Assembly: GCA_050084515.1 (NCBI GenBank) | Contig: CM114271.1 | Location: forward strand, 21,700,001 to 21,764,000 | Length of the DNA: 64,000 nucleotides | Source of the DNA: Blasia pusilla | Lineage: Eukaryota | Reading direction: 5' to 3' | The notes under the pieces: generated by a model | Database searches by the model: none | Seen by the model: the letters and a program-made list of their open reading frames with translations, nothing else | Told to the model about the DNA's origin: nothing | Program-made: the position numbers and the translations under genes | In this document: in pieces, positions 4,734 to 62,158 of the stretch | How positions within the stretch are numbered: the first letter of the stretch is position 1 | Layout: each line of letters starts with the position of its first letter

Positions 4734-5935
4734 CTCTCCAAGAAGTTTTCATTTTTCAATACAAAATTATTATGTATACTCTTCATTCTTTCACGACAAG
4801 TATCACAAATGGAAGTGCCGAGGCGATCACTTCTTCATAACATCCGACCCCAAAATTCATTATTATAAAATCCCTATAAACTACTTTACGCTTGTACATG
4901 ATGAAGATAGCACAACTAGTGTTAAATCTTACTTGAGCAGGCCTATTGACGTCCATCGATTGCTATATAAGGACATAAAAAAATACAATCCTATGTCCTT
5001 CCATATGTGAAGATAGGAAAAATCATCGGAGTTGGAGATTTCATGACCTTGTTCATGAACGCCTTCCCAAAGTGATAAACTAAATAGCGAGTGAACCAGT
5101 GTCTATCTACAAAGAGTACCTTGATATGGTAAAGAATGAGGAAAGGAAAGTCGGGCACAACTCGTGCTCCACCCCTATCCATGCTTGATACCCATTCTCT
5201 ACTCTCCTCAAGAATGGGCTTTGGCGGAATTAATTTCCCAAGAGGGGTAATCCACTCTCATTGGGAAAATAACAAGCCAAAACATTCACTATTTTAGTTT
5301 GTCTAAACTTCTCTAAGATGACAAGCCTCTCATCTCCACACACACCACACTCTAGAAATCTCTTGAAGAATAGACCATGGTCAAGTTATTCTCCCAAGAA
5401 GAATGATCCACTCTCATTGGAAGAGCAAGCAATCCTAAAGCCATACACTCAAGAGTGATACGAGAGAATCAAGATGTGAAATAGAAGGTGATGAATCCCT
5501 GAAGGTCCCTCCTCTTTATATACTCACAAGGGATCCACAAGAATACGAAATATAGCTACTCTTATATAGTGCCACATGGTTATCTCTCAAGACTTAGCCA
5601 ATCATATTTTGACAAAAGTAAATTTCCTCTTATCTCTTCCAAAATATCCTCTTTTATCCATTTGATATTTTCCAAAGTTCCCCAACTATCCTAACCACCA
5701 ACCAAGAATATTAAATCAATAACCTCACTATTTTACTTTTATAAAGTCATATTTTATTTATTATCTCTTTTTATTATTTTTATTATTCTAGGCCGGCATA
5801 AAAGAGGCACCATAAAGAGGTATAAATATGGGAATTTCTTTTTTTCTAAGTTAATTTACTTAATACTAATAAAACTCTATCTAACACTTAATGAAGAGGA
5901 GTTTACACACTAGCTGATTTTACTATACGATAGTG
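4734..5935 (-). repeat. Second copy of the 430-1290 repeat (probable LTR fragment)
   Basis: AT-rich insert within gypsy sequence, homologous to 530-1290. Confidence 0.45.
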
Positions 5936-7756: not shown

Positions 7757-8825
7757 ATGGAGACTTGGGAGCCTGTGATAGGTCTCAAGTTGATAGGAGG
7801 AGAGCGACAACGAGTTCATAGGTTTCTGAGAGGGCATGTAAGTTGTTTTGCCTTCAGTATGAGAGACTTGGGTACGCTGAAGGGTCCCGAGATACGGATT
7901 GAGTTGGCTAATGATACGCCGATCTTTCATCGACCCTACAAATATTCTGATATGAAGCGAGCCTTGATTCAGAGCACGAGTCAGAACTTGTTGGAGGCAG
8001 AACTTGTGGAGTTATCACATGTGGAGTATGCATTTGCCACAATCATGCCGACGAAGAAGGATATGTATGGCAGTTGGACGGATAGGCGGATGTGTGGAGA
8101 TTACCGTCCTATCAACCGACAGACGAGATCAGATCGGTACGCCATGCCTACTCCTGAGGAGATCTTTCATGCGGTAGGGCATGCAAAGATCTTCAGTACT
8201 TTAGATCTCCGTGTTGGCTATCATCAATTTCCTATCACGTTGGAGGACAAGGAGAAGACAACATTCTAGGGGATAGATCAGTTCGGGAGAGATTGCTTGT
8301 ATCAGTGGCGATTCTTACCATTTGGGTTGAAGAACGCGCATGTAGAGTTTCTGAGAGTGATGGATAGAATTCTGGCTGGCTTGGATTTGTTACGATGTTA
8401 CAAAGATGATATTCTTATCTTTAGTTCCACGGTTGAGGAGCATGAGCGACACTTGGAGGAGGTGTTTCGGAGATTGCAGTTACATGGACTGAAGTTACAT
8501 CCAGGCAAGTGCAGATTCTTTCAAGAGTAGATTGAGTACTTGGGACACACCATATACGCGAGTGGGTTAGGCATTCAACAGACGAAGGTGGAGGCTATTG
8601 CGCAGATTCCATGCCCTACAGATGTGAGCCGAGTACGAGCGTTCCTGGACTGGCAAACTTCTATCGATGGTATGTCAAGGGTTTAAGTGCGATCCCAAAG
8701 TCTTTGACCTTGTTGACGAGACTTGATCAGGTTTGGTCGTGGGGAGATGATCAGGAACGAGCATTTCAGGAGCTCAAGGACAGGATGACATCCTCAACCC
8801 ATTTAACAAAGACCGGTTAGGGGTT
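7757..8825 (+). pseudogene. Ty3/gypsy reverse transcriptase (disrupted)
   Basis: RMCGDYRPINRQT, LDLRVGYHQ, LPFGLKNA, CYKDDILIFS (YxDD), GLKLHPGKC, YLGH, GLANFYR; in-frame stops and a frameshift; truncated at 8829 by another LTR. Confidence 0.92.
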
Positions 8826-39798: not shown

Positions 39799-40316
39799 GC
39801 AATATGTGCTCCGTCCTAGGAGACACCATCATGTCCTGAGCCAGGTAGTAGGAATCCAACACGTCTTAGAGAAGAGAGGAAGCCTAAGACTTGTTAGACG
39901 AAACTAGGGGAAGGTGCAAAAGTGAAGAAGCCTGCCAAAATGCCTGTAAAGTTGGACTAAGAAGGAAAGAGTCCGATCACTCACGCAGCCAACCTGTCGG
40001 AATTTGACAGGTTTCCTGGAAGTGGTTAAAAAGATGGAGTGGTCAAAAAATTAAAAGTTGCAACCCGTGGCAATTCGACGGGTTGCAATATGAAGTGTCA
40101 GAGTACATAGACGATCACAATCGACAAGACCAAAAAATATATTCAACAAACTTTTACAAAAGCCATCATCGTTTGAAAAAATCTTGTCCTTTATTACATC
40201 CAAAGGAATCTCGGAATTGTACATTTGATCTATTCTATGAATTCTTATGCCTCATCATCAAATAAATCCCTACTCCAAAATGTTGTAGTAAAGCTGGGTC
40301 CTTGAGTTCTTTGAAC

Positions 40317-43300
40317 TCACTTGTCATCGTCCGAGAGCTCCTCCAGAATTATTGTCGGCCTTGCCTTCCTGATTTTTGGAATGGTGGGAAGTGACGATGG
40401 TGTCACTACCAATGGTGGGTCTGGAACCGGAGCTGTTGGCTTCGGAGGAAAGTTGTACGCCCCAACTAGCCTGTCGTAATCTGCCTTTGTTTCTTTGCAA
40501 AGGTCAAACAGTTCCTGCCTTTCCTCAAGGCAGAGAATGTTCCTACCACTCTGCCAAGCGCCTCTGATACTCACCCCTGAAAGGGCCACTAAGTCAAACA
40601 CCAAGTCACCCAACCTTAAGCAGAGCTCGATGAGCGTTTGCATCAGCGCCGACGACTTTTCCCTTCCTCCAAGTAAGGGGGTACCATTTTCCATGTAAAT
40701 TCCCGGGGGGGATTTGTATAAACTATCTAAGTTGTACCCATAAGAGCATGGATCCACTGGATCGAGGATCTGAAACACTTGGAAGTTGTGCTCGGGCCTT
40801 ACAAAATAGTAGACAAAAGGAGTGGTCCATCTGTAAAGAAGCACGTTGGAAAAATGTCAGCAACAAGAAAGAGCTAATTTGAGTATGCAACAACAAGAAA
40901 GGTATACTATCAAAATGGTAACACAATGTGCAACTCGTCCCCAAAGAACTTCGCTTAACCCCAGAGAACTTAGTTATAGTCCTAACATTGGAGCAACTGT
41001 CGGAGTCCGACGGGTTGTTTTACAAGTGTTAGTGATTATTTTTGCCATGAGCAACCCGTTGGAAGGCGACAGGTTGATGGCTTAGAGCAACCCATGGTTG
41101 GCTAAGAGCAACCTAACGTCGGTTCAGACGGGTTGCATCATTCTAGAAACACAAGGAAAAGCATAAGCACTTGCAACCCGTCAGGTTCCAACGGGTTGCA
41201 TTCACCCAATGGAGACTTGCGGTAAATTTGCAACTCGTCGTTTTTATACGGATTGCACCACCGAAGTCTCCAACTCAGACAATCGGACGGGTTGCATACA
41301 GAGATGAAACCCGTCGGAGCAAGACAATTTGGATATGGATTTAGAGCCCTTACCCGGATTTGACTCGTCGCGGATCCGAGTGGGTACTTGTTCTTGATGA
41401 CACACGATTGCGTCGTCCTCCACTTCAGCGACCTCTTGACGCACTGCAGGTTGAAAAGCGTGTCCTCACTCCCTCCAGTCAAAACCAAGAAACAGCCCCT
41501 ATCACAAAGATAAGCGTCTGCAAAGGAAAACAGGAGCGCGATCTGGTCATAAGAAAGAGGGACATTCCAGTCTGGGACACCGTCGGACGGATTCTCGTCC
41601 CACAAGCGCAACCCGGAGGGCAAATCAACGACGAGGAGATCCACCGCCACCTCCTTGACCTCCTCATGGACCGTCGAGGGAGCATGCATGTTTTGTTGAA
41701 GCTTCCGTCCCAGCGTTGTTAATTTGTCAATGGCGGGTGTCGACGCTTGGGAACTCAAACTTTTCAGCTCATCCAGAAGATTCGTGCAGTGAATAATGAC
41801 GCTTGTCTTGGTCGTTGTTTCTCTATGTCTTCCCAAGGATGATGGAGTGTATTCCACATCTTGGTCTGCTCCTTGGGACAAACTTGGCACTTCTCGCTTC
41901 TGCTTCTCCCCAGTCTGCGGTCGGCTTGTTGGGGTCTCTATTACCTCAGACTCTGGTGGAGTTTTTTTGGCAGAGGACCTGGTCCGACCCTCTCTCCCCG
42001 CTCGCCCGGATGATTCCGCCTCTCGCCTTGAATTCTCAGCCTTTTTTTGGGAAGACTGGGCCTCGGAATTCTTCGATCCCCTCGCCTTGGCTTTGAGACC
42101 CGCTGTAGATTTATCCTTGGCGGTGACAACCTTGGACACCAACTCCACTGTCTCGATGGCTTGCTCCTCCGCATCTCCTTCGAAAAAGTCTTCAGGCTGC
42201 ACGAAATTGGGGATGTCGTCCCTACCTACGGCCACTGCATCATAGAGCAGGCGTAGATTTTTCTCGGTTATGTCCTCAGGGTCGTTGAAGTCCAGCCAGA
42301 TCAGGCAATTCTCCACCTCGTTGTCGGACATGCTTTGAGCCATCTCCATGTCGTACATGGAAAATGTCTCTCCATCAGGCGGAGAAGCCCACAATTTGCA
42401 GGCTGCCGGTATTTTTTGCCACGTACTTGAATTCTTACAATGGACGAGGTACCTGAACACCATGCGTTGGGCAGCTCTTAGTCAAGATGCATCGGCCGCC
42501 TGCTCTTGAAGATATCGCTTTTTCTTTGCGAAATCCCTTTTCTTCACCTCTATTTCTTCATCAAGGTCTGCTTGAGGGAGGATGTGATCCTTGAACATCG
42601 TCTTGAAGCGTGGATTTTTTATGGGCTTGTCCCGCATGTCATCAAGGCAAAGTTCGAAATCTTTAGCACTCTCCAGGTTTTCTTCCTCCGGAACTGGGTC
42701 TATTTTTTTCAGCTCCGCTTGGAGACCCACAAGCATGGAATCCCCGAGAAGCCGCAACACGTCCCAAAATGACCATTCACAGAGCCTGTGGGAGATCATT
42801 GGATCAGAGACACCCGGAGGATGGTGTGCCGCCCTCTTTTGGGCCTATGTGCCCTCAAGACTAATTTTCATCAGTTGGATTCTCCTAAATTCCGAAATTC
42901 CAGACAAGGCAAATCGTTGGACGCGGTCGAGAGACACTTTCTCCCCAATCTGACCCTACGGATCTTCATCCCTCTTGCGCTGGCGCTTGATTATCGCCTT
43001 TAGCTCCTTGTAGAAATCGGGGCCAAGTTTGGGGTTGTGAATGGTGATGTAGCGCTGCATCTTGCTTGCAGTGTACTTCGTAGCTGCAAATACTGTAGCT
43101 TGGATGAACTTAGCACGCTCAGACAAAGATACTTTCTCCCTCCACTCCAGCTCCAATGAAGCGCTCTTCTTGGCGGCCTGTATCTTCGACCAGCAAAGGA
43201 TTATCACGGCTGCATCTTGGGAAATAAATGTATTTGCCCATGTCTTTTTTTTTATTTGAGCCCCCTTTGCCAGCATCTCATTTACAAGGGCGTCGCCCAA

Positions 43301-45308
43301 GAACCCCTTGTACTGTGTCGGGTGCATCGTTAGCACTTTCTTCACCCGATCGCAATCCTGGATCCAATGGTGGGTGACATTCCCCTCGGATACAATCATG
43401 CACATCCAAACTCAATATAAGAAATTTTGCAAGCTACATGGGTTCCTGCAACCCGTCGGACTTCGACAGGTCGTCATACCTCATGGTCGGAATGGTAGCT
43501 ACGAGCTAAATTTTGCAACCCATCGGAGTCTGACGGATTGCATTCAGATTTGTGATTGTCTAGTTTCAACCCGTCGGACTCCGACGGGTTGTCAAATAAT
43601 TTGTATTCAGAGAGTGGTCTCCACGAGAAAAGTGAACATATCAACCCGTCGGAGTTCGACAGGTTGCGCAATTTCATGTAAAGTTGCAATGTGACGCCAA
43701 AAATCAAGGTCCCCTACTCTAATCATCTTCCTATGCCGGCGAATGCAACGCGTCGGAGTCCGACGAGTTGCTTTCGCCAAAAAATCCTAAAAAGCGACAG
43801 TCGAGCAACTCGTCGGACTCCGACGAGTTGCTTTCGGCCAAAAACATCCTAAAAATAGCGGCCCGTCAGCAACTCGTCGGACTCTGACGAGTTGCTTTCG
43901 GCCAAAAACATCCTAAAAACAACAACCTGTCAAGCAACTCGTCGGACCCTGACGAGTTGCTTTCGGCCAAAAACATCCAAAAAACAGCGGCCAATCAAGC
44001 AACTCGTCGGACTTCGACGAGTTTTGTTACCACTAGTTAAACAACTCGTCGGAGTCCGACGGTTTGCACCAATCAAAATAAAAGAAAGAGGAAACTTACG
44101 TGTTCATGGCATGCATGGCCATCTCCACCGTCGCCATGTGATGAGGGTATGGATGTAGCACGACTTCCTTCACGCAAAAATGCGCCTCCAATGAGTTTTG
44201 GCGCTCCTCTGCAAACTGGGTCCACGCCATAAACCTATGGTTTCCATCCTAGATGAAGAAATACAGGTTCCGCATCCTGCTGAATTTCGTCCCCTCAATC
44301 GCCCTTCTGAATTTGTGATCTCTCATCCTCCAGAATGTGTCGAGCGCCTCCAAGTCCTCCTCTGTCACCAGCGCTTGGGTTCCATGTTCATCATAAGGCT
44401 GAACATAGAACGGAGGGAAGTTGTCGACGTAGGATGTTGTCGCTGCTGATTGTTTCAGCTTCGCAATATCCTCGTCAGACTAAATTTCGCGGACTTACTC
44501 AATTGTCCGCAATTGGCAAAGTGGAATTCTCGGGGCGTTCTGGCCCTCCATCAATGCCATCTGCTTTACCACCTGTCACAATGGGGACAAGGTCAATAAA
44601 CTACACTGAATTGCCAATGAATTGCAACATGGGCCTTCACATAACTCAAAGAACAAAGATCATATATTACCCGCTCGAAGATTGGGTCGATGTCTTGGCC
44701 CGCCAACTGCTTTGGGACATCAGTTGGCAAGTCCACTGGAAACTCGTTGATCCGATAGAGGTCAATTTCTTCTGCCGGGCTAAGAGACGAGGAAGACCGC
44801 TCTCCTGCTTCTTCGGAGATGTCCACCATCTCCTGCTGGCGGTCCTCATGACCTCATTGTCCGTCACTTGAACTTTGCCCATTTCCTCAGCCGATTTTAT
44901 ATTGATTGTGTCTCCGGACTTCATCAGAGACATTTCGTGCATCTCAACACTTTCGGTTGGACGGGCCAAGCTTTCTTCAATGGCAATCGCTTTTTCCCTT
45001 CGAGCTTTTGCCAATTCTCCTCTCCTCACCGACGCGTCTAGACGCTTCTTTTCACGCTTCTCCTCGACGATCCTTTTCTTCAAGGCCTGCGACGCCTCAG
45101 CCTCTGCGTTCTATTTTTTTCAATCGCCTCCTTAACACGTTCTGCAAGAAGCTCTTGCCTGTGCATCTCCGCTTCCCTTTCGCGCTCCTCAATCTCTTCC
45201 TGCCTTATCTCATTGGCCGAACGAGGCCCTGGAGATGGTGACGCAAGAATCCTGGACTTGGGAGTAAAGCTCCCAGCCTTGCTTGCTTGAGTTTTTTTTC
45301 CTCGTCAT
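40317..45308 (-). pseudogene. ParB-like/N4C-N6A DNA methyltransferase-like fusion gene, copy A; exons ~45308-44100, ~43397-41354, 40830-40317
   Basis: Coiled-coil N-terminus; VREI*SDEDIAKLKQS...PPFYV and YFFI*DGNHRFMAW (DGNHR at 44248-44234); VDLLVVDLPSGL (DLPS 41626-41615); REKSSALMQTLIELCLRLGDLVFDLVALSGVSIRGAWQSGRNILCLE. GTAAG donors at 44099 and 41353; first acceptor mutated; several stops and frameshifts. Confidence 0.8.
43744..44066. repeat. Tandem ~60-bp units, each containing a palindrome (intron 1 of the ParB-MTase gene)
   Basis: Unit agcaactcgtcggactccgacgagttgctttcggccaaaaacatcctaaaaa...; a perfect 29-bp palindrome (1-nt centre) at 43804-43832. Confidence 0.9.
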
Positions 45309-45528
45309 TGTTCCCGAAAATGCCACCTCCTCGATAACGAAATTACTTTCTGTGCAGGATGAGTCGCGTTGATGAGTCGCTCCGATGAGTCGCCTCAATG
45401 AGTTGCCTCGATGAGTCGCTCGAATCGTCTCGCGATGAGTGGTCGTGTAAAGCGCCCCTTGGTATCTGGTCCGCTAAAGAGCAATCAAGATCCCGAAACA
45501 AAAAACCTGAAATGAGCGAACGCTAGCC

Positions 45529-45536
45529 TATTTATA
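45529..45536 (-). promoter_or_regulatory. Candidate TATA box of the ParB-MTase gene
   Basis: TATAAATA on the minus strand ~220 bp upstream of the ATG; conserved in copy C at 59188-59195. Confidence 0.45.
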
Positions 45537-46628
45537 CTTTTCGAGCCGTTGGGCTCACCGTTGGGTCGCATCGTCATTTCGACGGCGACGTGTCGGCCGT
45601 TATGGAGGTCTGGACGTGAAAACCACCAACCCAACGGTCTTCGACGGGTTGGAGGCATCCGTCCTAGCCGAGATATCCTAGAAACCCGTCGGAGTCCGAC
45701 AGGTTGCCTGCCTCCACCGTCTTAGGGGAAGAACGCGAGGTACCCGCGCGACCCGTTGATGACCAACGGGTTGCACCCTTCCCTCGTCTTGGGATAACAA
45801 GGCGGGATACCTGCGCAACTTGTCGAAGGCCAAAAGGTTGCACGATTCCTTCATGTGAGCGTTACAAGGCGAGGCACTTGCGCAACCCGTCGGAGGCCGA
45901 CGGGTTGCACGCTTCCCTCATCTTGGGGTAATAGGCGGGGTACCTGCGCAACTTGTCGGAGGCCGACGGGTTGCACGCTTCCTTCATGTAAGCGTAACAA
46001 GGCAAGGTACTTGCGCAACCCTTCGGAGGCCGGCGGGTTGCACGCTTCCCTCATCTTGGGGTAATAGGCGAGGTACTGGGCAACTCGTCGGTTACAGACA
46101 CGTTGCACTTTTTTCTATCCCTCGGGCAACAATGTGACAATAGATAGTTCTGAGGCAACCTCTTGCAATCCGACGGGTCACAAGGTCTACCCTGAGTTGG
46201 ACAATCCCGTAACAATCCCCAGCTATTAGTTACCTTAGCAAATGCAAGGGATGTCTCGTGTTTGATGCTAGCAAAATCGTCTCAAAAGACCATTAGTCGG
46301 CATGAAGGGTGTACCAACCCAACGGACTCCAACGGCTTCCAATTTGCATTGGGACACGGAAACAAAAAATGGAATTGGGTGCTTTGCAACCCACGTCTCT
46401 GATTCCCAAATTCTGCAACCCATCGGACTCCGACAGGTTGCAACAAAATTGAATCCATCATGTCAAAAAATCTCACCTACCAAAATTCATCTTGTCAGTC
46501 AAATTCTGTCAAGAGAATCAGAGTCCCTATTCACTTTAAATTGAACATTCTCATTCTTATTCTCATTCCCATACCCATTCTTATCCTCATTCTTATTCTC
46601 TATCTCCTCCCGGTGGAATCTTCTCGGA

Positions 46629-49600
46629 ATGGATAATTATGTGAAGCTCACTTGTGGCAGTCATCTAGCGGCCCTTCCTCAATCAAAAATCGTTCGACCG
46701 CAAGCTCGTGAGTCTTTCATACCAATGGATGAAAATTTTCTCTCAGTTCGATTTCTTCTCCAAATTGGAACCATCTTTATATCCAAGGATGTTAGGATGG
46801 ACGGTATGGAGGACATAATAGGTGAGACAATCCAGCGAATGATTGCAGACCGTAAAGTATGGAATCTCCTACCTCTAGCAAATGATCAATACAGAGTTTA
46901 CGGCTTGCCTCTGAATTCCTCTGTTTCCCAAGTAGATGGTCGAGAATTTCCTAGTTCACCGAGCTCTACTTTGGCAACTCCTAGCTCAGTAGATCCGGCA
47001 TCGGCTCCAACTTCACACGTTCGTTACAATGGTGTACTTCCTGAAGAAATTCCCGATGTTGTCAACCTCAGTGGATCGGTCAGACACCAACCGGGCCCTC
47101 TGTCTGCCTACTCGTTCCTCTTGCGGATATCAGGCAATAGTTTGCTATCGCCTCTGGCCTTGAAAATGTTCAAGCACATTCTTGTCAATGAGCTGCGGCC
47201 CACGTACGATGGTAATTATATTTTTGGGTTGCCTCCACTTGCTGCTCCTGCTCAAAAGAAAGATGGAGGACGCTTGAAGGGTATGGACAGAAAGTCTGAT
47301 TGTCATCGATGGTGCAGGCTTCAACGGACTAGTGCTTCAATTTCAGATGGTCCTTGGATTTTCTCCCACCGCCAATTCGTTGGAGCCTTGGAGTGTAGAA
47401 GTCCAACATGCCCGTATCTAGAGCACAACGGACAAGTCAATACATTGCAATTCCCCCCCAAGAATGCAGAAACTCCATATGAGGTCGGTGCCACCATACC
47501 GCCGGGAGGTCATCGATGTCCTCATTGTCAAGCATCCCCTTTTTGCGAACTTTTTATGGTATTACTACTTGACACGAGAGATAACCAACGAGTAATTGGA
47601 GATGAACAGGATAGCCTGGATGTTCAAGTCGGGTTGGAGCGTGTCCTCCATACATATTCTTCATTATCCATGACTTGGGCTCCACGTCAAAGTACACAAG
47701 GCTGGCAATTCATGTTGGCTCCCACACTCATCCTGTGACCGATGCAATTCAGAGACACATCAAGGAGGATGTGGCAAAGAAAGTGGCCGAGATCTTGAGA
47801 AACTCTCCGGGTTCAAAGCCCGGAGTGATCAAGCTAACAACAGCATCACAAATTTGCAAACAATTGCTTGGAATCCTTGGATAGGGCGAGATCACGGCTG
47901 CTGAGGAGAAACAACCTTGGGAAAATCTCGCATTTCTCGCTGATCGTGAATGCTTCCGAATTTTTGCGTCAAATACGGGTACTCGATGGAAAGACGGCCA
48001 AAATGGATTTCATTGCCAGAATCAAGGCCAACTCCATATTTCCATTCATTTAGAGATGGCAATTCATGGGCTAGGGAGGCAAAGGATCCAGGGTCGATGT
48101 CTTCAAAATGTCAACGACAGGTCCGTCGAGTGGCCTCGATCTTATAGATCGAATGAGGGAAGGGGAAGATCTTTACGGTAGTTGGGTAAGCTTTGATATT
48201 TGCTACAGAGTGCTGAACGGATGGTTGAAAATGGGTGCTCATGTTTATGACCATGTGGAGAAGGGACTCAAAACTATATTTGTCTGTGAAGTAAAAGCAA
48301 AAGACATTGGCAGTTTGAAGATCTGTTGGTTACTCTTATTAGAGGTGGTGAAGGAAAACAAAAGGCCACCTCCGGAAATTTATGGGTTCATGGCGGACAA
48401 TGCACAACCTGGGTGGATTGCTATCAGGGAAGTGTTTTGGGGTGGGGAGGTTCAACCGGAGAGAGAAAGGTCGGATGCTTTCCATTGGCAACAATCTGTG
48501 ACCCGCTACACCAAATCTTGCATCAAGGAGAATAAGAGGAGGGAGCATGTCACTCTACTCCAACGCTGCAAGGACAACAAAACCTTGAAACAGGCCATGG
48601 AATGCCAAGAAGAAATTCATGGGTGGTGGAGGAAACATGCGATTGAGGGGAAGTACAAAGAGTTATGCTCTTGGTTGAGTTAGTGGACTGTACAAATGAG
48701 ACAATGGGGAAACTTCATGCGGGAGGTGAGTTCACTAATTTGTCTCGCTGAAAATTGTTTGAAGAGTTGCAGCTAAAGGTGAGAAGCGTGGGCACTATAG
48801 GGATTTCAAACCAAAGAAACCAAGCAATTTGTCGGATGCGACATGTTGCCTCCCTGAGTGTTCAACCCATCGCTTATCGACGTGTTTCCTGAGTGTGCAA
48901 AGAGTCGAAACCTGACGGGTTGCAAGTCGCACAGCCAAATTTACTTGCAACCCATCCGAATCATACGGGTTGACGGGTTGCCTGAGAGTGCAACTAGTCA
49001 GAAAAGGACAGGTTGCAAGTGGCATGGCCAAATTTACTTGCAACCCGTCAAAATTCGACGGGTTGCACTAGGTGGTTCATGGGTGTTGCAACACGTCGGA
49101 ACCAATAGGTTATAGAGTCATTCATGGGATACCTCCAACTTGCAACCCGTCACGTTTCGACATGTAGCTTTTTTTTTTGCTCATAGAGCTATTTTGGTTC
49201 CCTTATCACAGTGTCGTTGTTGCAGGGATTGAACATTTATGAAAATGCCTTCTGCCCCAACACAAGTGGAGCATAAAGTGTTCATTCCTCGTGGAGGTCA
49301 TCACAAGCATGCCAAAGAATTTCACTTGTGGAGTGTCACGACCCTCATAACCAAACAACACCAAATAGGCGCCAAGCGAAACATCAGAACTCAAGTGAAC
49401 TCACGCTGCGAGGTTTGCGCTTTGGAGAGGCGTTTGGAAAAGTCTCTTGGAAAAGTTTAAGAGACAAAACGTAGAACAGATCTAGAGTTGTGTGTTTCAT
49501 GCGTTAGTGGTCACAACCAGAAACCTAGACCAAACGCGAGCCAAGACTTGAGATGAGTTGAGTCTTGGGAGGTTGGTTGCCAAAGAGGTGAGAACCAGTT

Positions 49601-50957: not shown

Positions 50958-52487
50958 GGGGGCTGGTATTCTGGCAGGAGAGAGGAAGAGAGGAGAGGAA
51001 GAGAGGAAGAGAGGAGAGTCTCTCTTCAAAAAGGAAGAAAGGAGAGGAAGAGAGGAAGAGAGGAAGAGAGGAGAGTTCTTGATGACCCACGATTGCGCCG
51101 TCCTCCACTTCAGCGACCTCTTGACGCACTGCAATTTGAAGAGCTCGTCCTCGCTCCCTCCAGTCAAAACTAAGAAACAGCCCATGTCACTGAGATAAGC
51201 GTCTGCAAAGGAAAATAGGAGCGCGATCTGGTCATAAGAAAGAGGGACATTCCAGTCCGGGACCCCGTCGGATGGATTCTCGTCCCACAAGCGCAACCCC
51301 GAGGGCAAATCAGCAACGAGGAGATCCACCGCCACCTCTTCGACCTCCCCATGGACCGTCCAGGGAGCATGCGGGTTTCGTTGAATTTCGTCCCAGCGTT
51401 GTCAATTTCTCAATGGCGGGTGTCGACGCTTGGGAACTGAAACTTTTTAGCTCATCCTGAAGATTCGTGCAGTGAAGGATAACGCTTGTCCGGGTCGTTG
51501 TTTCTCTATGTCTTCCCAAGGATGATGGAGTGTATTCCACATCCTGGTCTGCTCCTTGGGACAACCCTGACGCCTCTCGCTTCCGCTTCTCCCGAGTCTG
51601 CGTTCGGCTTGTTGGGATCTCTATTACCTCAGACTCTGGTGGAGTTTTCTTTGCGGAGGACTTCGTCCGACCCTCTCTCCCCGCTCGCCCGGACGATTCT
51701 GGCTCTCGCCTTGAATCTTCAGCCTCTCTTTGGGAAGACTCAGCCTCGGAATTCTTCGATCCCCTCGCCTTGGCTTTGAGACCCGTTGTAGATTTCTCCT
51801 TGGCGGTGACGACCTTGGACACCAACTCCGCTATCTCGAGGGCTTGCTCCTCCCATCTCTTTTGAGAAGTCTTCAGGCTGCACAAAATTGGGGATGTCGT
51901 CCCTACCTGCGGCCACTACATCATAGAGCAGGCATAGATCTTTCTCCGTTATATCCTCAGGGTCGTTGAAGTCCAGCCAAATCGGGCAATTCTCCACCTC
52001 CCAATCGGACATGCTTTGAGCCATCTCCATGTCGTACATGGAAAATGGCTCTCCATCAGGCGGAGAAGCCCACAATTTGCAGTCTGTCGATATTTTTTGC
52101 CATGTACCTACATTCTTACAATGGACGAGGTACCTAAACACCCTGCGTTGGGCAGCTCTTAGTTGAGATGCATCGGCTGCCTGCTCCTGAAGATCTCGCT
52201 TCTTCTTTGCGAAATCCCTTTTTTTCGCCTCTATTTCTTCGTCAAGGTCTGCCTGAGGGAGGATGCAATCCTTGAACATCGTCCTGAAACCAGGGTTTTT
52301 AATGGGCTTGTCCCGCATGTCATCAAGCCAAAGTTCAAAATCCTCAGCACTCTCCAGGTTTGCTTCCTCCGGAATTGGCTCTATTCTTTTCAACTCCGCT
52401 TGGAGACCCACGAGCATGGACTTCCTGAGAAGCCGCAACGCATCACAAAATGACCATTCACGGAGCCAGTGGGAGATCACTAGATGA
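50958..52487. mobile_element. Mutator-like element copy B: left terminus fused to an internal fragment of ParB-MTase exon 2
   Basis: GGGGGCTGGTATTCT plus GA-rich terminus (50958-51075), then 51076-52487 homologous to 41390-42806 and 55436-56836 (DLPS at 51311-51300). Confidence 0.8.
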
Positions 52488-53612
52488 GGGGGCTGGTATT
52501 CTAGCAAGAGAGAGTAAGAGAGGAGAGGAAGAGAGGAAGAGAGGAGAGTCTCTCTTAAAAAAAAGGGCCAAATCCGCCTCCTCTCTTCAAAACTTTTTGA
52601 CATATTTGAAATTTTTGTTTGCTTTCAAATTCATGAAATCTTTAGAAGAGAGTAGGTAGTGGTCCACATTCGGGCCTAAAGAAACCTCCTTTTTCCAGGG
52701 GGCGAAAAAAAAGTAGACATCATAAGACCACTACAAACATTTTTCCATCACTCTCCATGTGAGCCTAAGTTTCTTAACATTGCCTGTCTCGGTCTACAAT
52801 AAGCAGTGCCCATGGGTATTTTTGTTGCGGGACCACTCGGATGCGCATCGGTACGATGCCAACCTCTCTTTTTGCAGGGATTGTTGCCTGCATCATGGCC
52901 TCCCTTGAATTGCCTCATAACCCACTTTCTGTTGGTTATGAATTGTGTCTGCTCAAGACCAACTTTGTGAAATGTGAACACATGATACGATAATTGAACC
53001 AAAAGATTGTTAGCTGTCTAGAGTAAAGAGGAACTGATGTGCCTTCATTCAGATCCTAAATCTGAGAAACCGAGAAGCTGCACCCCTCCCAACCCGTCGA
53101 AATTTTATAGGTTGCAACTCTTGCAACCCGTCGGAATCAGATGGCTTGCACCCCTTGCAAGCAAGTTCACCATAACAAAGGAAAGATTTTGAGAAGTGAT
53201 TCCCTTCCACCCTGCACCCATGAAAATCCAACAGGTTGGGAATCCGAAATGGTAATCCGCAGGTAGTAGAAATCCTGCACATCTTAGACAAGAAAAGAAG
53301 CCTACAACTGGTTTGACGAATCTAGGGGAACGAGCCAAAAGTGAAGAAGCCGGCCACAATGCGTCAGAAGTTGGTCTCAGAGGGAAAGAGTCCGATCACT
53401 CAAGCAGCCAACCTGTCGGAATCCGACAACTTGCCTGGAAATGGTTAAAAAGTTGCAATGGTCAAAAAGTGAAAAGTTGCAACCCGTCGGAATCATACGG
53501 GTTGCAAAATTGTCATTCTGAGTAGCTAGAAGAACGCAATCCACAAGTCCAAAAAAAATATTCAGCAAACTTTTCCAAACACCATTATCGGTTGAAAAAA
53601 TCTCGTCCTTTA

Positions 53613-53945
53613 TTACATCCGAAGGAATCTCGGAAATTTATATTTGACGTAGTCTATGATTTCTTCAGCCTCGTCATCTACAAATCTACTCCTAATTCTC
53701 CAAGGTTCCTGTACAAAAGGAATGTCCTGGGATACAAATGGCTCCTCTAGCCGATTGTAGACTGGGATCGAAAATGTTGGCAAATTTGAGAGCCTTGGTC
53801 CCTCCCCCCCCTCCTCTAGGTACACCATAACGGTCCCATGTAACCTGATTTGAGTCCCACCGCCTTCCTCGGCAGTATATCTTGTACGCTTTGCAATGAG
53901 ACACCCATCCAGTATCAATATGTGCTCCGTCATTGGAAATACCAT
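53613..53945 (-). CDS. Small ORF (110 aa) of unknown function inside the transposon
   Basis: ATG-initiated open frame with protein-like composition; its 3' part is duplicated in degenerate form at ~54310-54400 and ~40190-40290. Confidence 0.3.
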   Translation of the reverse strand: MVFPMTEHILILDGCLIAKRTRYTAEEGGGTQIRLHGTVMVYLEEGGEGPRLSNLPTFSIPVYNRLEEPFVSQDIPFVQEPWRIRSRFVDDEAEEIIDYVKYKFPRFLRM

Positions 53946-54434
53946 GATGGCAATCCAAGAGGTAGTAGGAATCCAACACGTCTGAGAGAAGAGAAGAAGC
54001 CTACGCCTTGTTTGACGATACTAGGGGAAGGTGCCAAAGTGAAGAAGCCCGCCAAATTGCCTCTTAAGTTGGACCAATAGGGAAAGAGTCCGATCACTCA
54101 CGCAGCCAACTTGTCGGAATCCGACAGATTGCTTGGAAATGGTTAAAAAGATGCAGTGGTCAAAAAGTGAAAAGTTGCAAACCGTGGAAATCCGACGGGT
54201 TGCAAAATAGAAGTCCTCGGAGTACATAGACGATCACATTTGAAAAGACATAAAAGATATTCAGCAAACTTTTAGAAACACCACCATCGTTCAAAAAAAT
54301 CTTGTCCTTTATTACATCCGAAAGAAGCTCGGAACTGTACATTTCATCTATTCTATGAAATCTTTTGCCCTCGTCATCAAATAAATCCCTACTCCAAACG
54401 CTGCAGTCAAGCTGGGTCCTTGAGTTCTTTGAAC

Positions 54435-57400
54435 TCACTCGTCATCGTCCGAGAGCTCTTGCAAAATTATTGTCGGCCTTGCCCTCCCGATTTTCGGAAT
54501 CGTGGGAAGTGACGATGGTGTCACTACCAATGGTAGGTCTGGAACCGGAGCTCTCGGCTTCAGAGGAGAGTTATACGCCCCAACTAGCCTGTCGTAATCT
54601 GCCTTTGCCTCCTTGCAAAGGTCAAATAGTTCCTGCCTTCCCTCGAGGCAGAGAATGTTCCTGCCACTCTGCCAAACGCCTTTGATACTCGCCCCTGAAA
54701 GGCCCACTAAGTCGAACACCAAGTCACCCGGCCTTGAGCAGAGCTCGATGAGCGTTTGCATTAGGGTTGGCGATGTTTCCCTTCGTCCAAGTAGTGGGGT
54801 ACCGTCTTGCATGAAAATTTCCGGGGGGGAATTGTATAAACTATCTAAGTTGTACCCATCAGAGCATGGATCCACGGGATCCTGGATCTTAAACACCTGG
54901 AAGTTGTGCTCGGGCTGAACGAAGCAGTAATCATAGGAGTGGTCCATCTGTAAAGAAGCACGTTGGAAACAATGTCAGCAACTTGGCCACTGGTCTACTC
55001 TCAATATGGTGACATAATGTGCAACACGTCACCAAAGAACTTTGCTTAAGCCCAGAGAACTTCTTTATAATACTAACATTGGAGCAACCTGTCGGAGTCC
55101 GACCGGTTGTTTTTGTCCATGACCAAACCGTCGGAAGGCGACGGGTTTCTGTCTTAGAGTGGAGAAGAGGGAAAACGCATTACCACCGGAAGCACAGGGA
55201 AAAAGCATAAGCACCTGCAGGTGCTTATGCTTTTTCCCTGTGCTTCCGGAAAGGTGCAACCCGTCTGAAAGCGACGGGTTGCTCTCAGCCAAGCATGGGC
55301 TGCTCTAAGCCAGCAACCTATCGCCTTCCGACGGGTTGCTCACGGACAAAAACAACACGTCGGAGAAATACAATCTGGAGACAGGAATAGAGCCTTACCC
55401 GAATTTGACTCGTCACGGATCCGAGTGGGTACTCATTCTTGATGATCCACGATTGCGCCGTCCTCCACTTCAGTGACCTCTTGACGCACTCGAGGTTGAA
55501 AAGCTCGTCCTCGCTCCCTCCAATCAAAACTAAGAAGCAGCCCCTGTCACTCAGATAAGCGTCTGCAAAGGAAAACAGGAGCGCGATCTGGTCATAAGAA
55601 AGGGGAACATTCCAGTCTGGGACCCTGTCGGACGGATTCTTGTCCCATAATCGCAACCCCGAGGGCAAATCAGCGATCAAGAGATCCACCGCTACCTCTT
55701 CGACCACCCCATGGACTGTCCAGGGAGCATGCCCATTTCGTTGAAGCTTCCGTCCCAACGTTGTCAATTTGTCGATGGCGGGTGTCGACGATTGAGAACT
55801 GAAACTTTTCAGCTCATCCAGTAGATTCGTGAACTGAAGGATGACGCTTGTCCGGGTCGTTTTTTCTCTATGTCTTCCCAAGGATGATGGACTATATTCT
55901 CCTTGGGACAACCCTGGCGCCTCTCGCTTCCGCTTCTCCCGAGTCTGTGGTTGGCTTGTTGGAGTCTCTATAACCTCAGACTGTGGTGGGGTTTTTTTCG
56001 CAGAGGACCTCGTCCGACCCTCTCTCCCCGCTCGCCCGGACGATTCAGGCTCTGGCCTTGAATCTTCAGCCTCTCTTTGGGAAGACTCGGCCTCAGAATT
56101 CTTCCATCCCCTTGCCTTGCCTTTGAGACCCGCTGTAGATTTGTCTTTGGCTATGTGGACCTTGGAAGCCAACTTCGCTGTCTCGAGGGCTTGCTCTTCC
56201 GCATCTCCTCCGAAAAAATCTTCAGGCTGCACAAAATTGGGGATGTCGTCCCGTCCTGCGGCCACTGCATCATAAAGCACGCGTAGATCTTTCTCGGTAA
56301 TGTCCTCAAGGTCGTTGAAGTCTAGCCAAATCGGGCAATTCTCCACCTCCCAATCGGACATGCGCTCAGCCATCTCCGTGTCGTACATGGAGAATGTCTC
56401 TCCATCAGGCGGAGAAGCCCACAATTTGTAGGCTGCCAGTATTTTTCCCCGGGTACCTGCATTCTTACAAGGGACGAGGTACCTGAACACCATACGTTGG
56501 GCAGATCTTACTCGAACTGCATCGGCCGCCTGCTCCTGAAGATCTCGCTTCTTCTTTGCGAAATCCCTTTTTTTTCCCTCAATTTCTTCGTCAAGGTCTG
56601 CCTGAGGGAGGATGCAATCCTTCAACATCGTCTTGAAACCTGGGTTTTTGATGGGCTTGTCCCGGATGTTATCAAGCCAAAGTTCAAAATCTACAACACT
56701 CTCCAAGTTTGCTTCCTCCGGAAGTGGCCCTATTCTTTTCAGCTCCGCTTGGAGACCGTCGAGCATGGACTTCCCGATAAGCCGCAACGCGTCCCAGAAC
56801 AACCATTCGCGGAGCCAGTGGGAGATCACTGGATCAGAGACACCCGGAGGATGGTGTGCCGCCCTCTTTTGGGCCTCTGTGCCCTCGAGACTGATTTTCA
56901 TCAGTCGTATTCTCCTAAATTTTCTTATTCCAAACAAGGCAAATCGATGCACGCGATCGAGAGACACTTTCTCCCCAATCCGACCTTGCGGATCTTCATC
57001 CCTTTTCCGCTTGCGCTTGATTATCGCCTTTAGCACCTTGTAGAAATCCGAACCAAGTTCGGGGTTGAGAATGGCGATATAGCACTGCATCTTGCTTGCC
57101 GTGTACTTCGTAGCTGCAGATACTGCAGCTTGGATGAATTTTGCATGCTCAGACAGAGATACTTTCTCCCTCTGCTCCAGCTCCAATGCAGCGCTCTTCT
57201 TGGCGGCCTGTATCTTCGACCAGCAAAGGATTGTGACGGCTGCATCTTGGGAGATAAATTTATTTGCCAAAGTCTTCTTTTTGATTTGTGCACCCTTTTC
57301 CAGCATCTCATTTACAAGGGCGTCGCCCAAGAACCCCTTGTACTCTGCCGGGTGCGTCGTTAGCACTTTCTTTCCCCGATCGCAATTCTGGATCCAGTGG

Positions 57401-58932
57401 TGGGTGACATTCCCCTCCGATACAATCCTGCACATCCAAACTCAATATAAGAAAATTTGTAAGTTACATGGGTTCTGCAACCCGTCGGACTCTGATAGGT
57501 CGTCACAGCTCAAGGTTGGATTGTAGCAACGAGCTAAATTATGCAACCCATCGGAGTCCGACGGATTGCATTCAGATTTGTGATTGCCTGGTTTCAACCC
57601 GTCGGACTCCGACGGGTTGTTAGATAGTCCGTATCAAAAGTGAACATATCAACCCGTCAGAGTCCGACAGGTTGCGCAATTTCAATGAAAGTTGCAATTT
57701 GACGCCAAAAATGTAGCTCCCAACTTCCGAATACAATGTGTCGGACTCCGACGAGTTGCTTTCGGCCAAAGACATCAAAAAACCTCCAAAAATAGCTTCG
57801 AGTCAAGCAACCCGTCGGACTCCGATGAGTTGCTTTCTTCAAAAAACATCCAAAAAATGGGGCGAGTCGAGCAACTCGTCGGACTTCGACGAGTTGCTTT
57901 GGGCCAAAAACATCCTAAACCTGTGGTGAGTCGAACAACTCCTCGGACTCCGACGAGTTGCTTTCAGCCAAAAACATCCTAAACCATTGATCAATCGAGC
58001 AACTCGTCGGAGTTCGACGAGTTGCTTTGGGCCAAAAACATCCCAAAAATAGTGGCGACTCAAACAACTTGTCGGAGTCCGACGGTTTGCAGCAAGAAGA
58101 AACTTACGTGTTCATGGCATGCATGGCCATCTCCACCGTTGCAATCGGCAGAGTGGAATTCTCGGGGCGTTGTGGCCCTCCATCAGTGCCATCTGCTTTA
58201 CCACCTATCACAACGGGGACAAGATCAATAAGCTACAGTGAATTGCCAATGAATTGCAACATGGGCCTTCACATAATTCAAAAAACACATATCCTCTCTT
58301 ACCCGCTCGAAGATTGGGTCGGTGTCTTGGCCATCCAACTGCTCTGAGACAGCAGCTGGCAAGTCCACTGGAAACTCGTCGATGCGATAGAGGTCGATTT
58401 CTTCCGCCGGGCTTAGAGACGAGGATGACCGCTCTCCTGCTTCTTCAGCGATGTCCACCATCTCCACGCTGGCGGTCCTCATGACCTCATCGTCCGTGAT
58501 CTGAACTTTGGCCGTTTCCGCTATATTGATTGTGTCCCGGGACTTCATCGGGGACATTTCCCGCATCTCAACACTTTTGGTTGGACGGGCAGGGCTTTCT
58601 TCAATGGCTATTGCTTTTTCCCTCCGAGCTTTAGCCAATTCTGCTCTCCTCACCGACGCGTCCAAACGCTTCTTTTCTCGCTTTTCGTCGGCGACCCTTT
58701 TCTTCAAGGCCTGCGACGCCTCTGCCTCTACGTTCTATTTATCGAGCGCCTCCTGTACACGTTTTGCAAGAAGCTTCTCCTTGTGCATCTCCGCTTCCCT
58801 TTCTCGCTCCTCGATTTCTTGCTGCCTTATCTCATTGGCCGAACGAGGCCCTGGAGATGGTGACGCAGGAGTCCTCATGGACTTGGGAGTGAAGCTCCCA
58901 GACTTGTTTGCTTGAGATTTTTTCCTCGTCAT
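54435..58932 (-). pseudogene. ParB-like/N4C-N6A methyltransferase-like fusion gene, copy C; exons 58932-58108, 57427-55399, 54947-54435
   Basis: Canonical GT-AG junctions give MHAMNT|IVSEGNVTHHW and SQIR|MDHSY in frame; exons 2 and 3 are open (705-aa and 170-aa ORFs). VDLLIADLPSGL (DLPS 55671-55660); RETSPTLMQTLIELCSRPGDLVFDLVGLSGASIKGVWQSGRNILCLE. Exon 1 has stops and lacks the DGNHR segment (deletion at ~58140). Confidence 0.82.
57470..58092. repeat. Palindrome array in intron 1, copy C
   Basis: About ten copies of caac(c/t)cgtcgga-n-tccgacg(g/a)gttg at roughly 60-bp spacing. Confidence 0.9.
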
Positions 58933-60465
58933 TTTTCCCAGAAATGCCTCCACCCATGTGCACGATGAATCGCTTGATGAGTCGCCTTGCTGATGTCGAG
59001 ATGAGTCACCTTGATGGGTAGCTCGAATCGTCTCGCGATCGTTCGCTCGAACCATCTTGCGATCGTTCGCTCGTATCGTCTCGCGATGAGTCGCCGTGTA
59101 AAGCGCCCCTTGGTATCTGGTCAACAGCTGCGCGGGAGAGCAATGGAGATCGCGAAATGAAAAACCGGAAATGAGCGATTTCTCCCCTATTTATACTTTT
59201 CGAGCCGTTGGGCTGACCGTTGGGTCGCATCGTCCTTCCGACAGCGACGTGCCGGCCGTTACGGAAGTCTGGACGTGAAAAACAGCAACCCGACAGCTTC
59301 GACGGGTTGTGCGCTTCCCTAGGGTTCAAGGCATCCGTCCTCGTGGCAACCCGTCGGAGTCCAACAGGTTGCGCGCGTCCGCCGTCCTAGGACGAGAACG
59401 CAAGGTGCGCAAGCAACCCGTCGGAGACCGACAGGTTGAGCGCCTCCGCTGTCTTCAGACAAGAATGCGAGGTACACGCGCAACTCGTCAGAGACTGACA
59501 GGTTGCGCGCCTCCGCCGTCTTCGGACAAGAACAGGAGGTACGCGCGCAACCCGTCGGAGATCGTTGGGTTGCACGCTTTGGAGACCGTTGGGTTGCAAC
59601 GCGGGCTTCCGTGCAACTCCTCGGAGGCCGACAAGTTGCACGCTTCCTTCATGTAAGCGAAACAAGGCAAGGCCCTTGCGCAACCCATCTGAGGGCGACG
59701 GGTTGCACGCCTCGCCGTCTTTGGGCAAGAAGGTGCGGCACCTGCGGAACTCGTCGGAAACAGACGGTTTGCACGCTTCCTTCATGTAAGTGTTACACCA
59801 TGAGATAATTGGGCAACCCCTCTGATGCCGACTGGTTGCGCGCCTCCGCGTCTTTGGGCAAGAAGGCGCGGTACCCGCGCAACTCGTCGGAGAGCGACGG
59901 GTTGCCAGCTTTGTTCATGTTTGCGTTACAAGGTAAGGCAGAAGCATGCAACCTGTCCAAAGCCAACAGGTTGCAGGATTCACTTAGCTTGGGTTAATAG
60001 TTGAGTTACCAGGGCAACCCGTCGGTTATCGACAGGTTGCACGCTTTTCTATCCCTCGGGAAACAATGCGACAACGTATTGTTCCAAGGAAACCCATTGC
60101 AATCCGATGGGTTACAAGATGTACCATGAGTTGGACAATCCCGCAAAACCAAGCGATATCTTGTGTTTGATGCTAGCAAAATCGCCTCAAAAGATCTTCG
60201 GTCGGCAAGAAGGGGATACCAACCCAACGGACTCCGACGGGTTCCAACAAAATGAAGTGTGTTTCGCAACGCACGTCTCTACTTCCCAAATCCTGTAACC
60301 CACCTGACTCGAGAGGTTGTAACAGAATTGAATCCATTGTATCAGACAATTTCACCTACCAAACTTCACCTTGTCAATCAAATTCTGTCAGGAGAATCTG
60401 AGTTCCTATTCACTATAAATTAAACATTCTCATTCTCAGTCTCCTCTTGTTGGAATCTTCTGGGA

Positions 60466-62158
60466 ATGGATACTTATGTGAAGCTCACTTATGGCAGTCA
60501 TCTAGCGGCCCTTCCTCAATCAAAAATCGTTCGACCGCAAGCTCTAGAGTCTTTCATAGCAGTGGATGAAAATTTTCTCTCTCTTCGATTTCTTCTCTAA
60601 ATTGGAACCATCTTTGTATCCAAGGATGTTAGGGTGGACGGTACGGAGGACATAATAGGTGAGACAATCCAGCCAGTGATTGCAGACCGTAAAGTATGGA
60701 ATCTCCTACCTCTAGCAAATGGTCAATACAGAGTTTACGGCTTGCCCCTGAATTCGTCTGTTTCCCAAGTAGACGATCGAGAATTTCCTAGTGCACCGAG
60801 CTCTACGTTTGCAACTCCTAGCTCAGTAGATCCGGCTTCGACTCCAACTTCACACACTCGTAACAATGTTGTTCTTCCTGAAGAGATTCCGGATGTTATC
60901 AACCTCAGTGGATCTGTCGGACACCAACCGGGCCCTCTATCCGCCTCCTCGTTCCTCTTTCGAATATCAGGCAATAGTTTGCTTTTGTCTCTGGCCTTGA
61001 AAATGTTCAAGCACATTCTTGTCGACGAGGTGCCGCCCACGTACGATGGTATTTGCATTTTTGAGTTGCCTCCACTTGTTGCTCTTGCTCAAAAGAAAGA
61101 TAGAGGATGCTTGAAGGGTATGGACAGAAAGTCTGATTGTATTTGGGGACCCCGGACCGCTCCCAAATCCGTGATGGAGACCCTTCTCCAAAATCAGTGA
61201 ATGTCTTATTTCAAAAGCCCTCCGTTGCTGGAAGTTTGCAACATCATGTCACTAGAGTGGTTCAACAATATGGGATTCCGGTAATGGAGGTGGATTGCAA
61301 CCTAAAACGGTGGCATATATCTCGGAGTAACCCAGGACATGGACCCACCTGAAGGGCAAGATCTGATGGCATTAGGAGAGCATGCGGCACTTTCCTAAAT
61401 AAGAACTGTACAAGGATTGGACGACCACTGCCTGGGTTTTGGGGATTCAAAACCTTTGATCGTTTCACGAGGACCGGGGATCAATTGAAGTACTTCTTCT
61501 GTCCAAATGAATCTTGCGCTTTCTGGAAGTCTTATCCGGATGCCATTGGAGCTCCGGGGAATACCCCCACGATTTGGCCCATCGTTACAGGTAAAAATTG
61601 CACTCAAGACGAAGTGGACAATCTTACAAGTGTCGGTTTCAGACTTGTAGACGGGGGAAGTTCGGAGCATGTTTGCATTATAGAGACCTTCGCATTTCGT
61701 ATTCAACCCAAGATTGATGTCAAGATGTACCGGAGAAGGTGGATGATCTCAATCCACTATTTCTGTTTGAGTCTAGAAATGGGGTGAAGAGAAACAGAAT
61801 GTGTAGGCCAATGGTGGAGAGAGCAAAGCGAATTGCATCAGCTTGAGAGGCAAAAATGGAGATCATCGCCACAAAAGATGTCAACAGTGGCAATGGAATA
61901 GGAAGGATGTATTGGATCAAGAAAAAAATTGTAAATTCAAGTGTCACAGGGGTGTATGTGGTGCACATCTGTTGCTTTCCCACATGTTCATGTGATGACT
62001 TTGTCCAAAGAGAGACAAGTGGCAAAAGGTTTTTTCCCTTGTAAGCACATGTACTATGTATTGCTGGCAGTTTTAAGAGAGTCGGAGGTAGGAGTAGGAA
62101 TCCACCAACCAATTTTGTCCCTCAAAGAAGTGCGAAGTATTTTAAACAAACCACTTTG
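60466..62158 (+). pseudogene. MULE-type transposase, copy C: DDE core deleted, C-terminal SWIM zinc finger retained
   Basis: 60466-61140 matches 46629-47303, then joins directly to the equivalent of ~50746. The C-terminus reads VYVVHICCFPTCSCDDF...FFPCKHMYYVLL (CxCxnCxH, with a 1-nt frameshift). Confidence 0.85.

Follow-up and report, generated by a model that had tools for sequence, protein, structure and literature searches.

We analysed a 64,000-nucleotide stretch of Blasia pusilla DNA (GenBank assembly GCA_050084515.1, contig CM114271.1, positions 21,700,001 to 21,764,000 of the forward strand; hereafter the window), in which the minus strand holds the remains of what appears to be a transposon accessory gene. 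At its centre lies a pseudo-exon (44100..44572) that, according to translation, homologues, alignment and a structure model, once specified an N-terminal domain of the ParB/sulfiredoxin (Srx) fold. It is bounded by an AG acceptor (44574-44573) and a GTAAGT donor (44099-44094), and reads on the minus strand from 44572 to 44100 as a single exon free of frameshifts, with three in-frame stops: TAA at 44497-44495, TAG at 44482-44480 and TAG at 44251-44249. The reading in minus-strand frame 1 is VVKQMALMEGQNAPRIPLCQLRTIE, stop, VREI, stop, SDEDIAKLKQSAATTSYVDNFPPFYVQPYDEHG...NLYFFI, stop, DGNHRFMAWTQFAEE...VEMAMHAMNT, and its landmarks are IPLCQL (44527-44510), DGNHR (44248-44234) and HAMN (44113-44102). 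With X at the stops, the exon gives a sequence of 158 residues (P0001; VVKQMALMEGQ...IEXVREIXSDED...NLYFFIXDGNHRFMAW...VEMAMHAMNT).

An earlier note, made from the letters alone, had quoted VREI, DGNHR and MAMHAMN from this strand as a ParB-like core hidden by a frameshift and stops. Translation bears out the quoted reading, and the ParB-like segment is confirmed as a real observation; the extent then proposed, 44100..44510, is too short. The stops exist as described and the frameshift does not: it is apparent only, because a 98-base intron (GTAATA...GACAG, 44573..44670, minus strand, recognised from its sequence) parts the exon from an upstream exon in another frame. This candidate exon (MVDISEEAGERSS...DPIFER; 44671..44829, minus strand, with a putative boundary within the open reading frame (ORF) 44593..44829) would supply the acidic or low-complexity N-terminus of the protein. 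The spliced join, in which ...DPIFER is followed by VVKQMAL..., fits the F..I(I/V)..Y.M stretch found ahead of IPLCRL in relatives.

Downstream, two further exons were traced on the minus strand. The large exon (41387..43405), recognised by translation and tblastn collinearity, covers a helical region resembling the ParB helix-turn-helix (HTH) domain, a middle region and the N-terminal half of a methylase, with DLPSG at 41626-41612 and premature stops at 42958, 42847 and 42484. The exon for the C-terminal half of the methylase (40317..40844), placed by Pfam, by collinearity with a relative and by the family profile, contains the motif I region and FDLVALSG at 40598-40575. The relative in question, P0105 from Riccia (1244 residues), shows the whole order in one chain: IPLYRL...WEGNHR (approximately residues 155-290), then a helical middle, LDMPSG and a motif I region reading IDFAGGWGAT. 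By tblastn it is collinear with the gene in the window in four blocks (44533-44063, 43390-42719, 42139-41468 and 40670-40326). The earlier note had named intact family members without DGNHR in frame with the methylase as the finding that would speak against it; P0105 carries WEGNHR and the methylase motifs in one polypeptide. Its paralogue P0013 reads WDGNHQ at the loop. At the junction between the first two large exons, within 43350-43470 of the minus strand, no in-frame AG acceptor lies ahead of the exon starting ...SEGNVTHHWIQ. The AG at 43412-43411, which is the likely acceptor, misses the frame by one base, and a second copy of the gene in the window, described below, reads alike; the two copies may share a frameshift or use another acceptor site.

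Taken as a whole, the data are best explained if the segment is what decay has left of the first large exon in an accessory gene that was carried by a transposon and joined a ParB-like module to a methylase, a reading that we consider quite probable. The collinearity with P0105, the presence of several copies and a divergent transposase-like gene are all as would be seen if both modules belonged to one transposon-borne protein encoded opposite the transposase. In intact relatives the gene specifies a single protein of about 1,100-1,250 residues in three parts: an N-terminal ParB/sulfiredoxin-fold domain with a near-invariant putative nucleotide-phosphate loop, (W/F)DGNHR; a helical region that would correspond to the HTH DNA-binding domain of ParB, on which it can be overlaid; and, past a long linker, a presumed beta-class N6-adenine/N4-cytosine DNA methylase.

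Copies of the gene and their decay

Comparison of the window with itself by BLAST located three copies. Copy A, which contains the exon described above, spans 39800-47303. Copy C (53916..61140, minus strand) is about 80-83% identical to copy A by BLAST and alignment, and retains a 705-codon open frame (55318-57435; P0002) and the C-terminal half of the methylase (54435-54947). Copy B (51075..52488, minus strand) is a fragment with only the middle region and the N-terminal half of the methylase, 90% identical to positions 41390-42807 of copy A. The statement in the earlier note that the ParB-like segment is present in copy A and deleted from copy C holds: the BLAST junctions (44137 in A to 58145 in C, and 44509 in A to 58141 in C) agree with the alignment, in which copy C lacks about 376 bases of the exon (approximately 44132-44508 of A, including DGNHR) and the junction at about 58141-58145 is out of frame.

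The stops in the ParB-like exon are all TAA or TAG and its frame is otherwise well kept, as would be seen if the gene were alive and these codons were read as amino acids, through a variant code or readthrough. Such a working copy A is hardly conceivable in view of the remaining evidence. Compared with the open frame of P0002, the next exon of copy A has TAG in place of CAA, TAG in place of GAG and TGA (42484) in place of CGA, so that copy A has in total six premature stops of all three kinds, which rules out a variant genetic code. Copy C reads through 705 codons without any of the three stop types, and the other long ORFs of the window end normally. Nor does any single reassignment fit, because relatives show W, Q and a variable residue at the three stop positions of the exon. 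Stop-codon reassignment was accordingly rejected, given the premature TGA and a copy C that is open under the standard code.

RNA depth over 44214-44514 was zero in three RNA runs with the same species label. These runs placed 12, 11 and 12 reads on 9,001 bases, nearly all of them only 95-99% alike, and the placed reads probably derive from other copies. The lack of RNA on the ParB-like exon fits dead copies. Copy A is a dead pseudogene, and the locus yields no working product; with only dead copies in the window, its value is as a pointer to a family and not as a working system.

Among the genomic reads, ten from one run (X11) join position 43669 to 45882, skipping 2212 bases and carrying about 36 other letters between the two. 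These reads point to other genomic copies that lack the ParB-like exon and the upstream exons, and internal-deletion derivatives seem to be common.

The N-terminal domain and its family

Searched exhaustively with HMMER, a library of 1.84 billion protein representatives yielded 102 proteins related to the ParB-like exon at E<=1e-3, of which 28 reach E<=1e-10; the top match has E 1.2e-20 and 37% identity. Matches were also found in 54 metagenome loci. Judged by these sequence comparisons, the match is beyond chance. In a family alignment of 35 sequences, N111 and H112 of the loop are invariant and D109, G110 and R113 are conserved in at least 90%, giving a family loop of (W/F)DGNHR(L)xAW; the same level of conservation is reached by P17, C19, V27, R28, W77, F105, W117, V134 and N157. 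At the positions where the window has stops, relatives mostly have W or F (108), often have Q (31) or vary (26).

The end of the domain is marked in a consistent manner. Most short relatives stop directly after ...MHxxN. Twenty metagenome loci have a match that extends to the end of the domain, several being near-duplicates of each other, and all 20 share with the window a phase-2 GT donor exactly two bases past the codon of the conserved Asn. The donor identifies the gene as eukaryotic and its intron as old and conserved. For the long relative P0013, all 31 named matches are hypothetical proteins of Riccia sorocarpa, which indicates that the family is multicopy in this liverwort. When P0105 was run by tblastn against 50,697 phage and 72,556 plasmid records, nothing matched at E<=0.01. 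P0002 and a longer family alignment likewise found nothing in word-indexed protein searches, a method by which a negative is weak evidence.

The fold was assigned from predicted structure. An AlphaFold2 model of P0001, built with the alignment, has a pLDDT of 91.1 and a pTM of 0.85 and displays the three-dimensional fold of the ParB N-terminal domain and sulfiredoxin. In this model DGNHR (residues 109-113) sits at the start of helix 111-123, and by its position ahead of that helix the conserved G-x-x-R would form a phosphate loop at a strand-to-helix junction. The best Foldseek match is ParB 6sdk_A (probability 0.97, E 0.036), with Noc, Srx and SbnI also in the top rows, and 13 of the 14 matching chains, out of 48,161 searched, are of ParB/Srx type. 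SerK is a further match, as are SspE, BrxU, a Dnd-system protein and Osa, which we take to be of DUF262/DndB/ParB-Srx type. For a model of the relative P0012, the ESM Atlas returned ParB_N/HTH_ParB clusters in 9 of 10 rows, with TM scores of 0.38-0.45. On these models, a ParB/Srx fold of the domain is well supported.

A series of results weighs against the assignment. Every TM score from the Atlas is below 0.5, Foldseek gives zero matches at E<=0.001, and two-domain overlays on ParB have a root-mean-square deviation (rmsd) of about 6 A. Sequence profiles do not see ParB: Pfam families of the ParB clan match 0 of the 102 relatives at E<=0.001, P0001 itself matches only DUF1015 (E 0.004, under the cut-off), and among the 35 aligned members Pfam reports DUF1015 in 2 and DndB in 1, again under the cut-off, these two families being members of the ParB clan. 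The family profile run against sequences of the Protein Data Bank found no ParB and only the ribosomal protein eL24 (E 0.036), and hhalign of the family against ParB of phage P1, a single sequence and as such a weak template, gave a probability of 0.2 and no alignment. Finally, the loop reads GNHR, whereas Box II of canonical ParB has the consensus GERRxRA, which the family lacks.

Could the resemblance be a coincidence, the domain being a lineage-specific alpha/beta domain unrelated to ParB and Srx? We judge this very unlikely. The want of sequence-profile evidence for ParB and structure scores that are middling by the tools' own grading would be in line with it. However, the structure matches are nearly all of the ParB/Srx type, the G-x-x-R loop lies at the start of a helix where the P-motif of ParB is found, and the independent ESM Atlas models agree on ParB. 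Moreover, fusion to an N6/N4 methylase is known for phage proteins of the ParB fold, as described in PMC12704722.

The ParB box layout with a GxxR nucleotide-binding motif proposed in the earlier note is thus supported as an interpretation, by the fold, the GxxR loop and the conserved terminal Asn, and falls short in that the loop is GNHR and not GERR and that no sequence profile sees ParB. The loop is closer to the DG-x-HR loops of orphan, non-canonical members of the ParB/Srx group. The substitution of GNHR for GERR means that CTP-clamp behaviour is not implied, and the domain as a canonical CTPase-clamp ParB is not supported. The domain is unseen by Pfam, and current domain libraries miss the ParB module entirely.

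Methylase, palindromes and possible role

The earlier note had also suggested that the helical region after the ParB-like exon could be an HTH. In a structure overlay (rmsd about 6 A), the helical region of relatives falls on the HTH domain of ParB, which agrees with the suggestion without proving it; by these models, a ParB-like HTH is plausible.

The C-terminal part is recognisable at the profile level. The exon for the C-terminal half of the methylase matches Pfam N6_N4_Mtase (PF01555) with E 0.0013 and 19.2 bits, and is collinear with residues 1035-1143 of P0105. Over 128 of its positions, motif I among them, the family profile matches the DpnA-type adenine methylase 5hek_A (E 5.6e-5); M.RsrI and the rotifer N4CMT match weakly, and PHROG DNA-methylase families match 5 of 14 members, with a best E of 1.6e-6. 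PF01555 is found in 3 of 14 long relatives, the best being P0119 with 25.9 bits against a gathering cut-off of 26.7. These matches indicate homology to beta-class DNA methylases, with motif I following motif IV. Two observations count against an intact enzyme of this class. The PF01555 matches in the window (19.2 and 17.4 bits) are below the cut-off of 26.7, and motif IV, for which the consensus is (D/N/S)PP(Y/F/W), departs from it as D(L/M)P(S/T)G in the window and in Riccia. Copies A and C both read DLPSG there, and the Riccia proteins DMPSG, DMPTG or DLPTG; P0087 has DVPFG. With such a motif IV, methylase catalysis may be lost or altered. From its sequence, the C-terminal part appears to be an N6-adenine/N4-cytosine DNA methylase of the beta class, in which motif IV precedes motif I, with uncertain activity.

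The gene is accompanied by arrays of a 27-bp palindrome, GCAACTCGTCGGA-N-TCCGACGAGTTGC. Six copies with a 65-base period stand in the intron directly after the ParB-like exon (43745..44090), and a second tandem array, of about six units of a related palindrome with a 67-base period, lies at 45683..46091, in the space that separates the ParB-methylase gene from the divergent transposase-like gene. In copy C the arrays occupy 57778-58084 and 59346-59940. All 52 occurrences of the half-site GCAACNCGTC in the window fall within 40-63 kb and none in 1-39 kb, and the 23-base palindrome core has 32 matches against 0 expected. At another locus of the family (L003), 13 copies of TGAGGTGCC-N6-GGCACCTCA with a period of about 138 bases extend over 1751-5814, on both sides of the ParB-like exon (4299-4724); the layout is the same as in the window and the palindrome sequence is different. 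At other loci of the family (L018, the L023-26 group, L046 and L048/49), too, the exon is adjoined by palindrome arrays with sequences of their own.

From this arrangement we infer a working model for intact copies, to which we assign slightly less than an even chance. Under this model, the ParB-like module would recognise the palindromes of the element as parS-like sites, perhaps with nucleoside-triphosphate-dependent clamping or spreading there, and would bring the methylase to transposon DNA. Methylation of the transposon's own DNA could then serve to mark it or to protect it from silencing.

The association with palindromes has its weak side. Palindrome families of at least 3 copies are present in only 9 of the 29 loci of at least 4 kb, many of them duplicates, and two palindrome families of this size are present even in the half of the window that served as control (1-39 kb); the link is on both counts suggestive and not a statistical proof. 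The palindromes could instead be transposase sites. This possibility is part of a broader alternative, in which the ParB/Srx-fold domain is an enzyme (a nuclease, kinase-like protein or NTPase, comparable to Srx, SerK/SbnI, DndB or DUF262) or a regulator of the methylase and not a parS-type palindrome binder, whereas the palindromes are transposase-binding or hairpin-forming subterminal repeats unrelated to the domain. We regard this alternative as unlikely, with a weight well below that of the working model and yet far from negligible. The loop DGNHR is closer to the DG-x-HR loops of orphan ParB/Srx members than to GERR; Srx, SerK and SbnI are among the structure matches; and DUF1015 and DndB are the families that Pfam matches weakly. 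Palindromes occur throughout the element, far from the gene as well as near it, as transposase sites would. Orphan ParB folds take ATP or GTP besides CTP, as described in PMC12704722. On the side of parS-like recognition, the preferred model, stand the arrays placed beside the exon and differing in sequence from locus to locus.

Known systems and surroundings of the gene

ParB-like and methylase accessory proteins have been described from brown, green and red algal transposons, as have palindrome arrays (PMC12477816; 10.1101/2025.02.11.637652), and the present gene is a further member of this class of transposon accessory genes already known from algae. The likeness is one of architecture and setting, as the algal proteins are described. 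The closest parallel is the giant transposon Sola1-1_Ec32 of Ectocarpus, for which Dinatale et al. (2025, PMC12477816) describe an accessory protein of 1104 residues, ParB-like and with a DNA methyltransferase, whose gene and that of the transposase lie on opposite strands. There as here (about 1244 residues in Riccia), one long protein has a ParB-like N-terminal part and a methylase; the methylase of Sola1-1_Ec32 is predicted in that description to make 6mA or 4mC, and the role proposed is to bind and modify its own element. The two differ in superfamily (Sola1 there, probably Mutator-like here) and in host lineage, and the copy in the window is a pseudogene.

Red-algal Plavaka (EnSpm), Zisupton and Mutator elements carry the accessory genes PAG2 and PAG3 (Petroll et al., 10.1101/2025.02.11.637652). 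According to the description given there, PAG3 is ParB-like and adjoined by tandem inverted repeats, and PAG2 has a PF01555 methylase; a PF01555 methylase on the same elements and inverted-repeat arrays beside the ParB-like gene are thus common to both systems, as is a ParB-like domain that is visible only to remote or structural methods (best HHpred match 7BNR, E 0.29). In the red algae, however, the ParB-like domain goes with a 2OG-oxygenase (PAG3) and the methylase with SET (PAG2) in separate proteins, whereas here a single protein holds both modules.

More distant parallels concern architecture. ParB-fold fusions to N6/N4 methylases are reported as enriched in phages (PMC12704722), and the ParB-CTPase-fold-N6_N4 fusions of phages and prophages described there share the two modules and the association with mobile elements; no sequence similarity to them is detectable, and introns, a GNHR loop and a linker of some 600 residues set the present family apart. 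Relative to the canonical CTP-dependent clamps ParB, Noc and KorB, the family has GNHR for GERR, no Pfam or HMM match, and a methylase instead of a dimerisation domain at the C-terminus. A ParB-HTH unit fused to a different, Dam-type clade of methylases is described from chlorophytes and chytrids (Iyer et al., PMC4738411). Within the literature library searched, queries combining ParB with Marchantia or bryophyte terms found no report from land plants.

These comparisons suggest that the algal-type ParB-like and methylase accessory gene has a large unannotated family elsewhere, with named members from a liverwort and many from environmental eukaryotic contigs, a conserved intron and palindrome arrays of its own. 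Transposons with their own DNA-binding and DNA-modifying proteins could place epigenetic marks on their own DNA, a little-explored strategy in eukaryotes. A bolder proposal, which we think rather improbable, is that of a eukaryotic family invisible to Pfam, in bryophytes and algae, whose ParB module co-evolved with element-specific palindromes as a self-recognition system of the "ParB-parS plus methylase" kind, and which may be the same as DUF3723. The latter has been described as a conserved accessory gene of the fungal giant transposons called Starships. If this were true, giant transposons of eukaryotes in different kingdoms would have made repeated use of a module of the bacterial partition type. 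The link to DUF3723 comes from a language-model lead alone. HMMER lends it no support: PF12520 (DUF3723) matched 0 of 26 members at E<=10 and 0 of 35 at E<=1. No paper in the searched library mentions both "DUF3723" and "ParB". As to the lead itself, the ESM Atlas clusters nearest to residues 100-420 of P0012, a relative of window positions 42956-44572, are fungal DUF3723 (score 0.95-0.96, 167-190 shared features; for the closest of them, 0.96 and 189-190).

The ParB-methylase gene stands head-to-head with divergent transposase-like ORFs on the plus strand (46629..48683; ORFs 46629-47738 and 48108-48683), which would encode a probable Mutator-like (MULE) transposase. Their nearest ESM Atlas clusters carry MULE (score 0.94, 167 shared features), which serves as a lead only. 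In three loci of the family (L042, L045 and L047), the second ORF has a homologue some 4.2 kb away from the ParB-like exon and on the other strand. As points to the contrary, Pfam shows no MULE in the ORFs of the window at E<=1, leaving the call to the language model; neither terminal inverted repeats nor target-site duplications were detected, and the self-comparison by BLAST gave no inverted repeat of at least 150 bases. Genomic depth, from reads with the same species label, is about 300 at 48127-48427 and about 190-305 across 48127-48728, compared with 2-8 over much of the ParB-methylase gene. The great majority of the genomic reads (2873 of 3002) are only 95-99% alike and thus come from many other copies, and the core of the transposase-like gene is part of a highly abundant family of repeats.

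The window as a whole is a nest of several repeat families, in which, for example, 8829-10853 matches 37436-39387 at 82%. A retrotransposon gag ORF (39071-39907, plus strand; Pfam E 1.5e-9) adjoins the left end of copy A, and a weak reverse-transcriptase match lies at 7757-8269 on the plus strand. The only ordinary host-type gene noticed is the ORF at 23513-24184 (plus strand), a short-chain dehydrogenase of the adh_short family (E 4.3e-32). Next to it, at 24211-28598, a unit of about 1.0-1.1 kb is present three times in tandem, with mutual identities of 70-79%.

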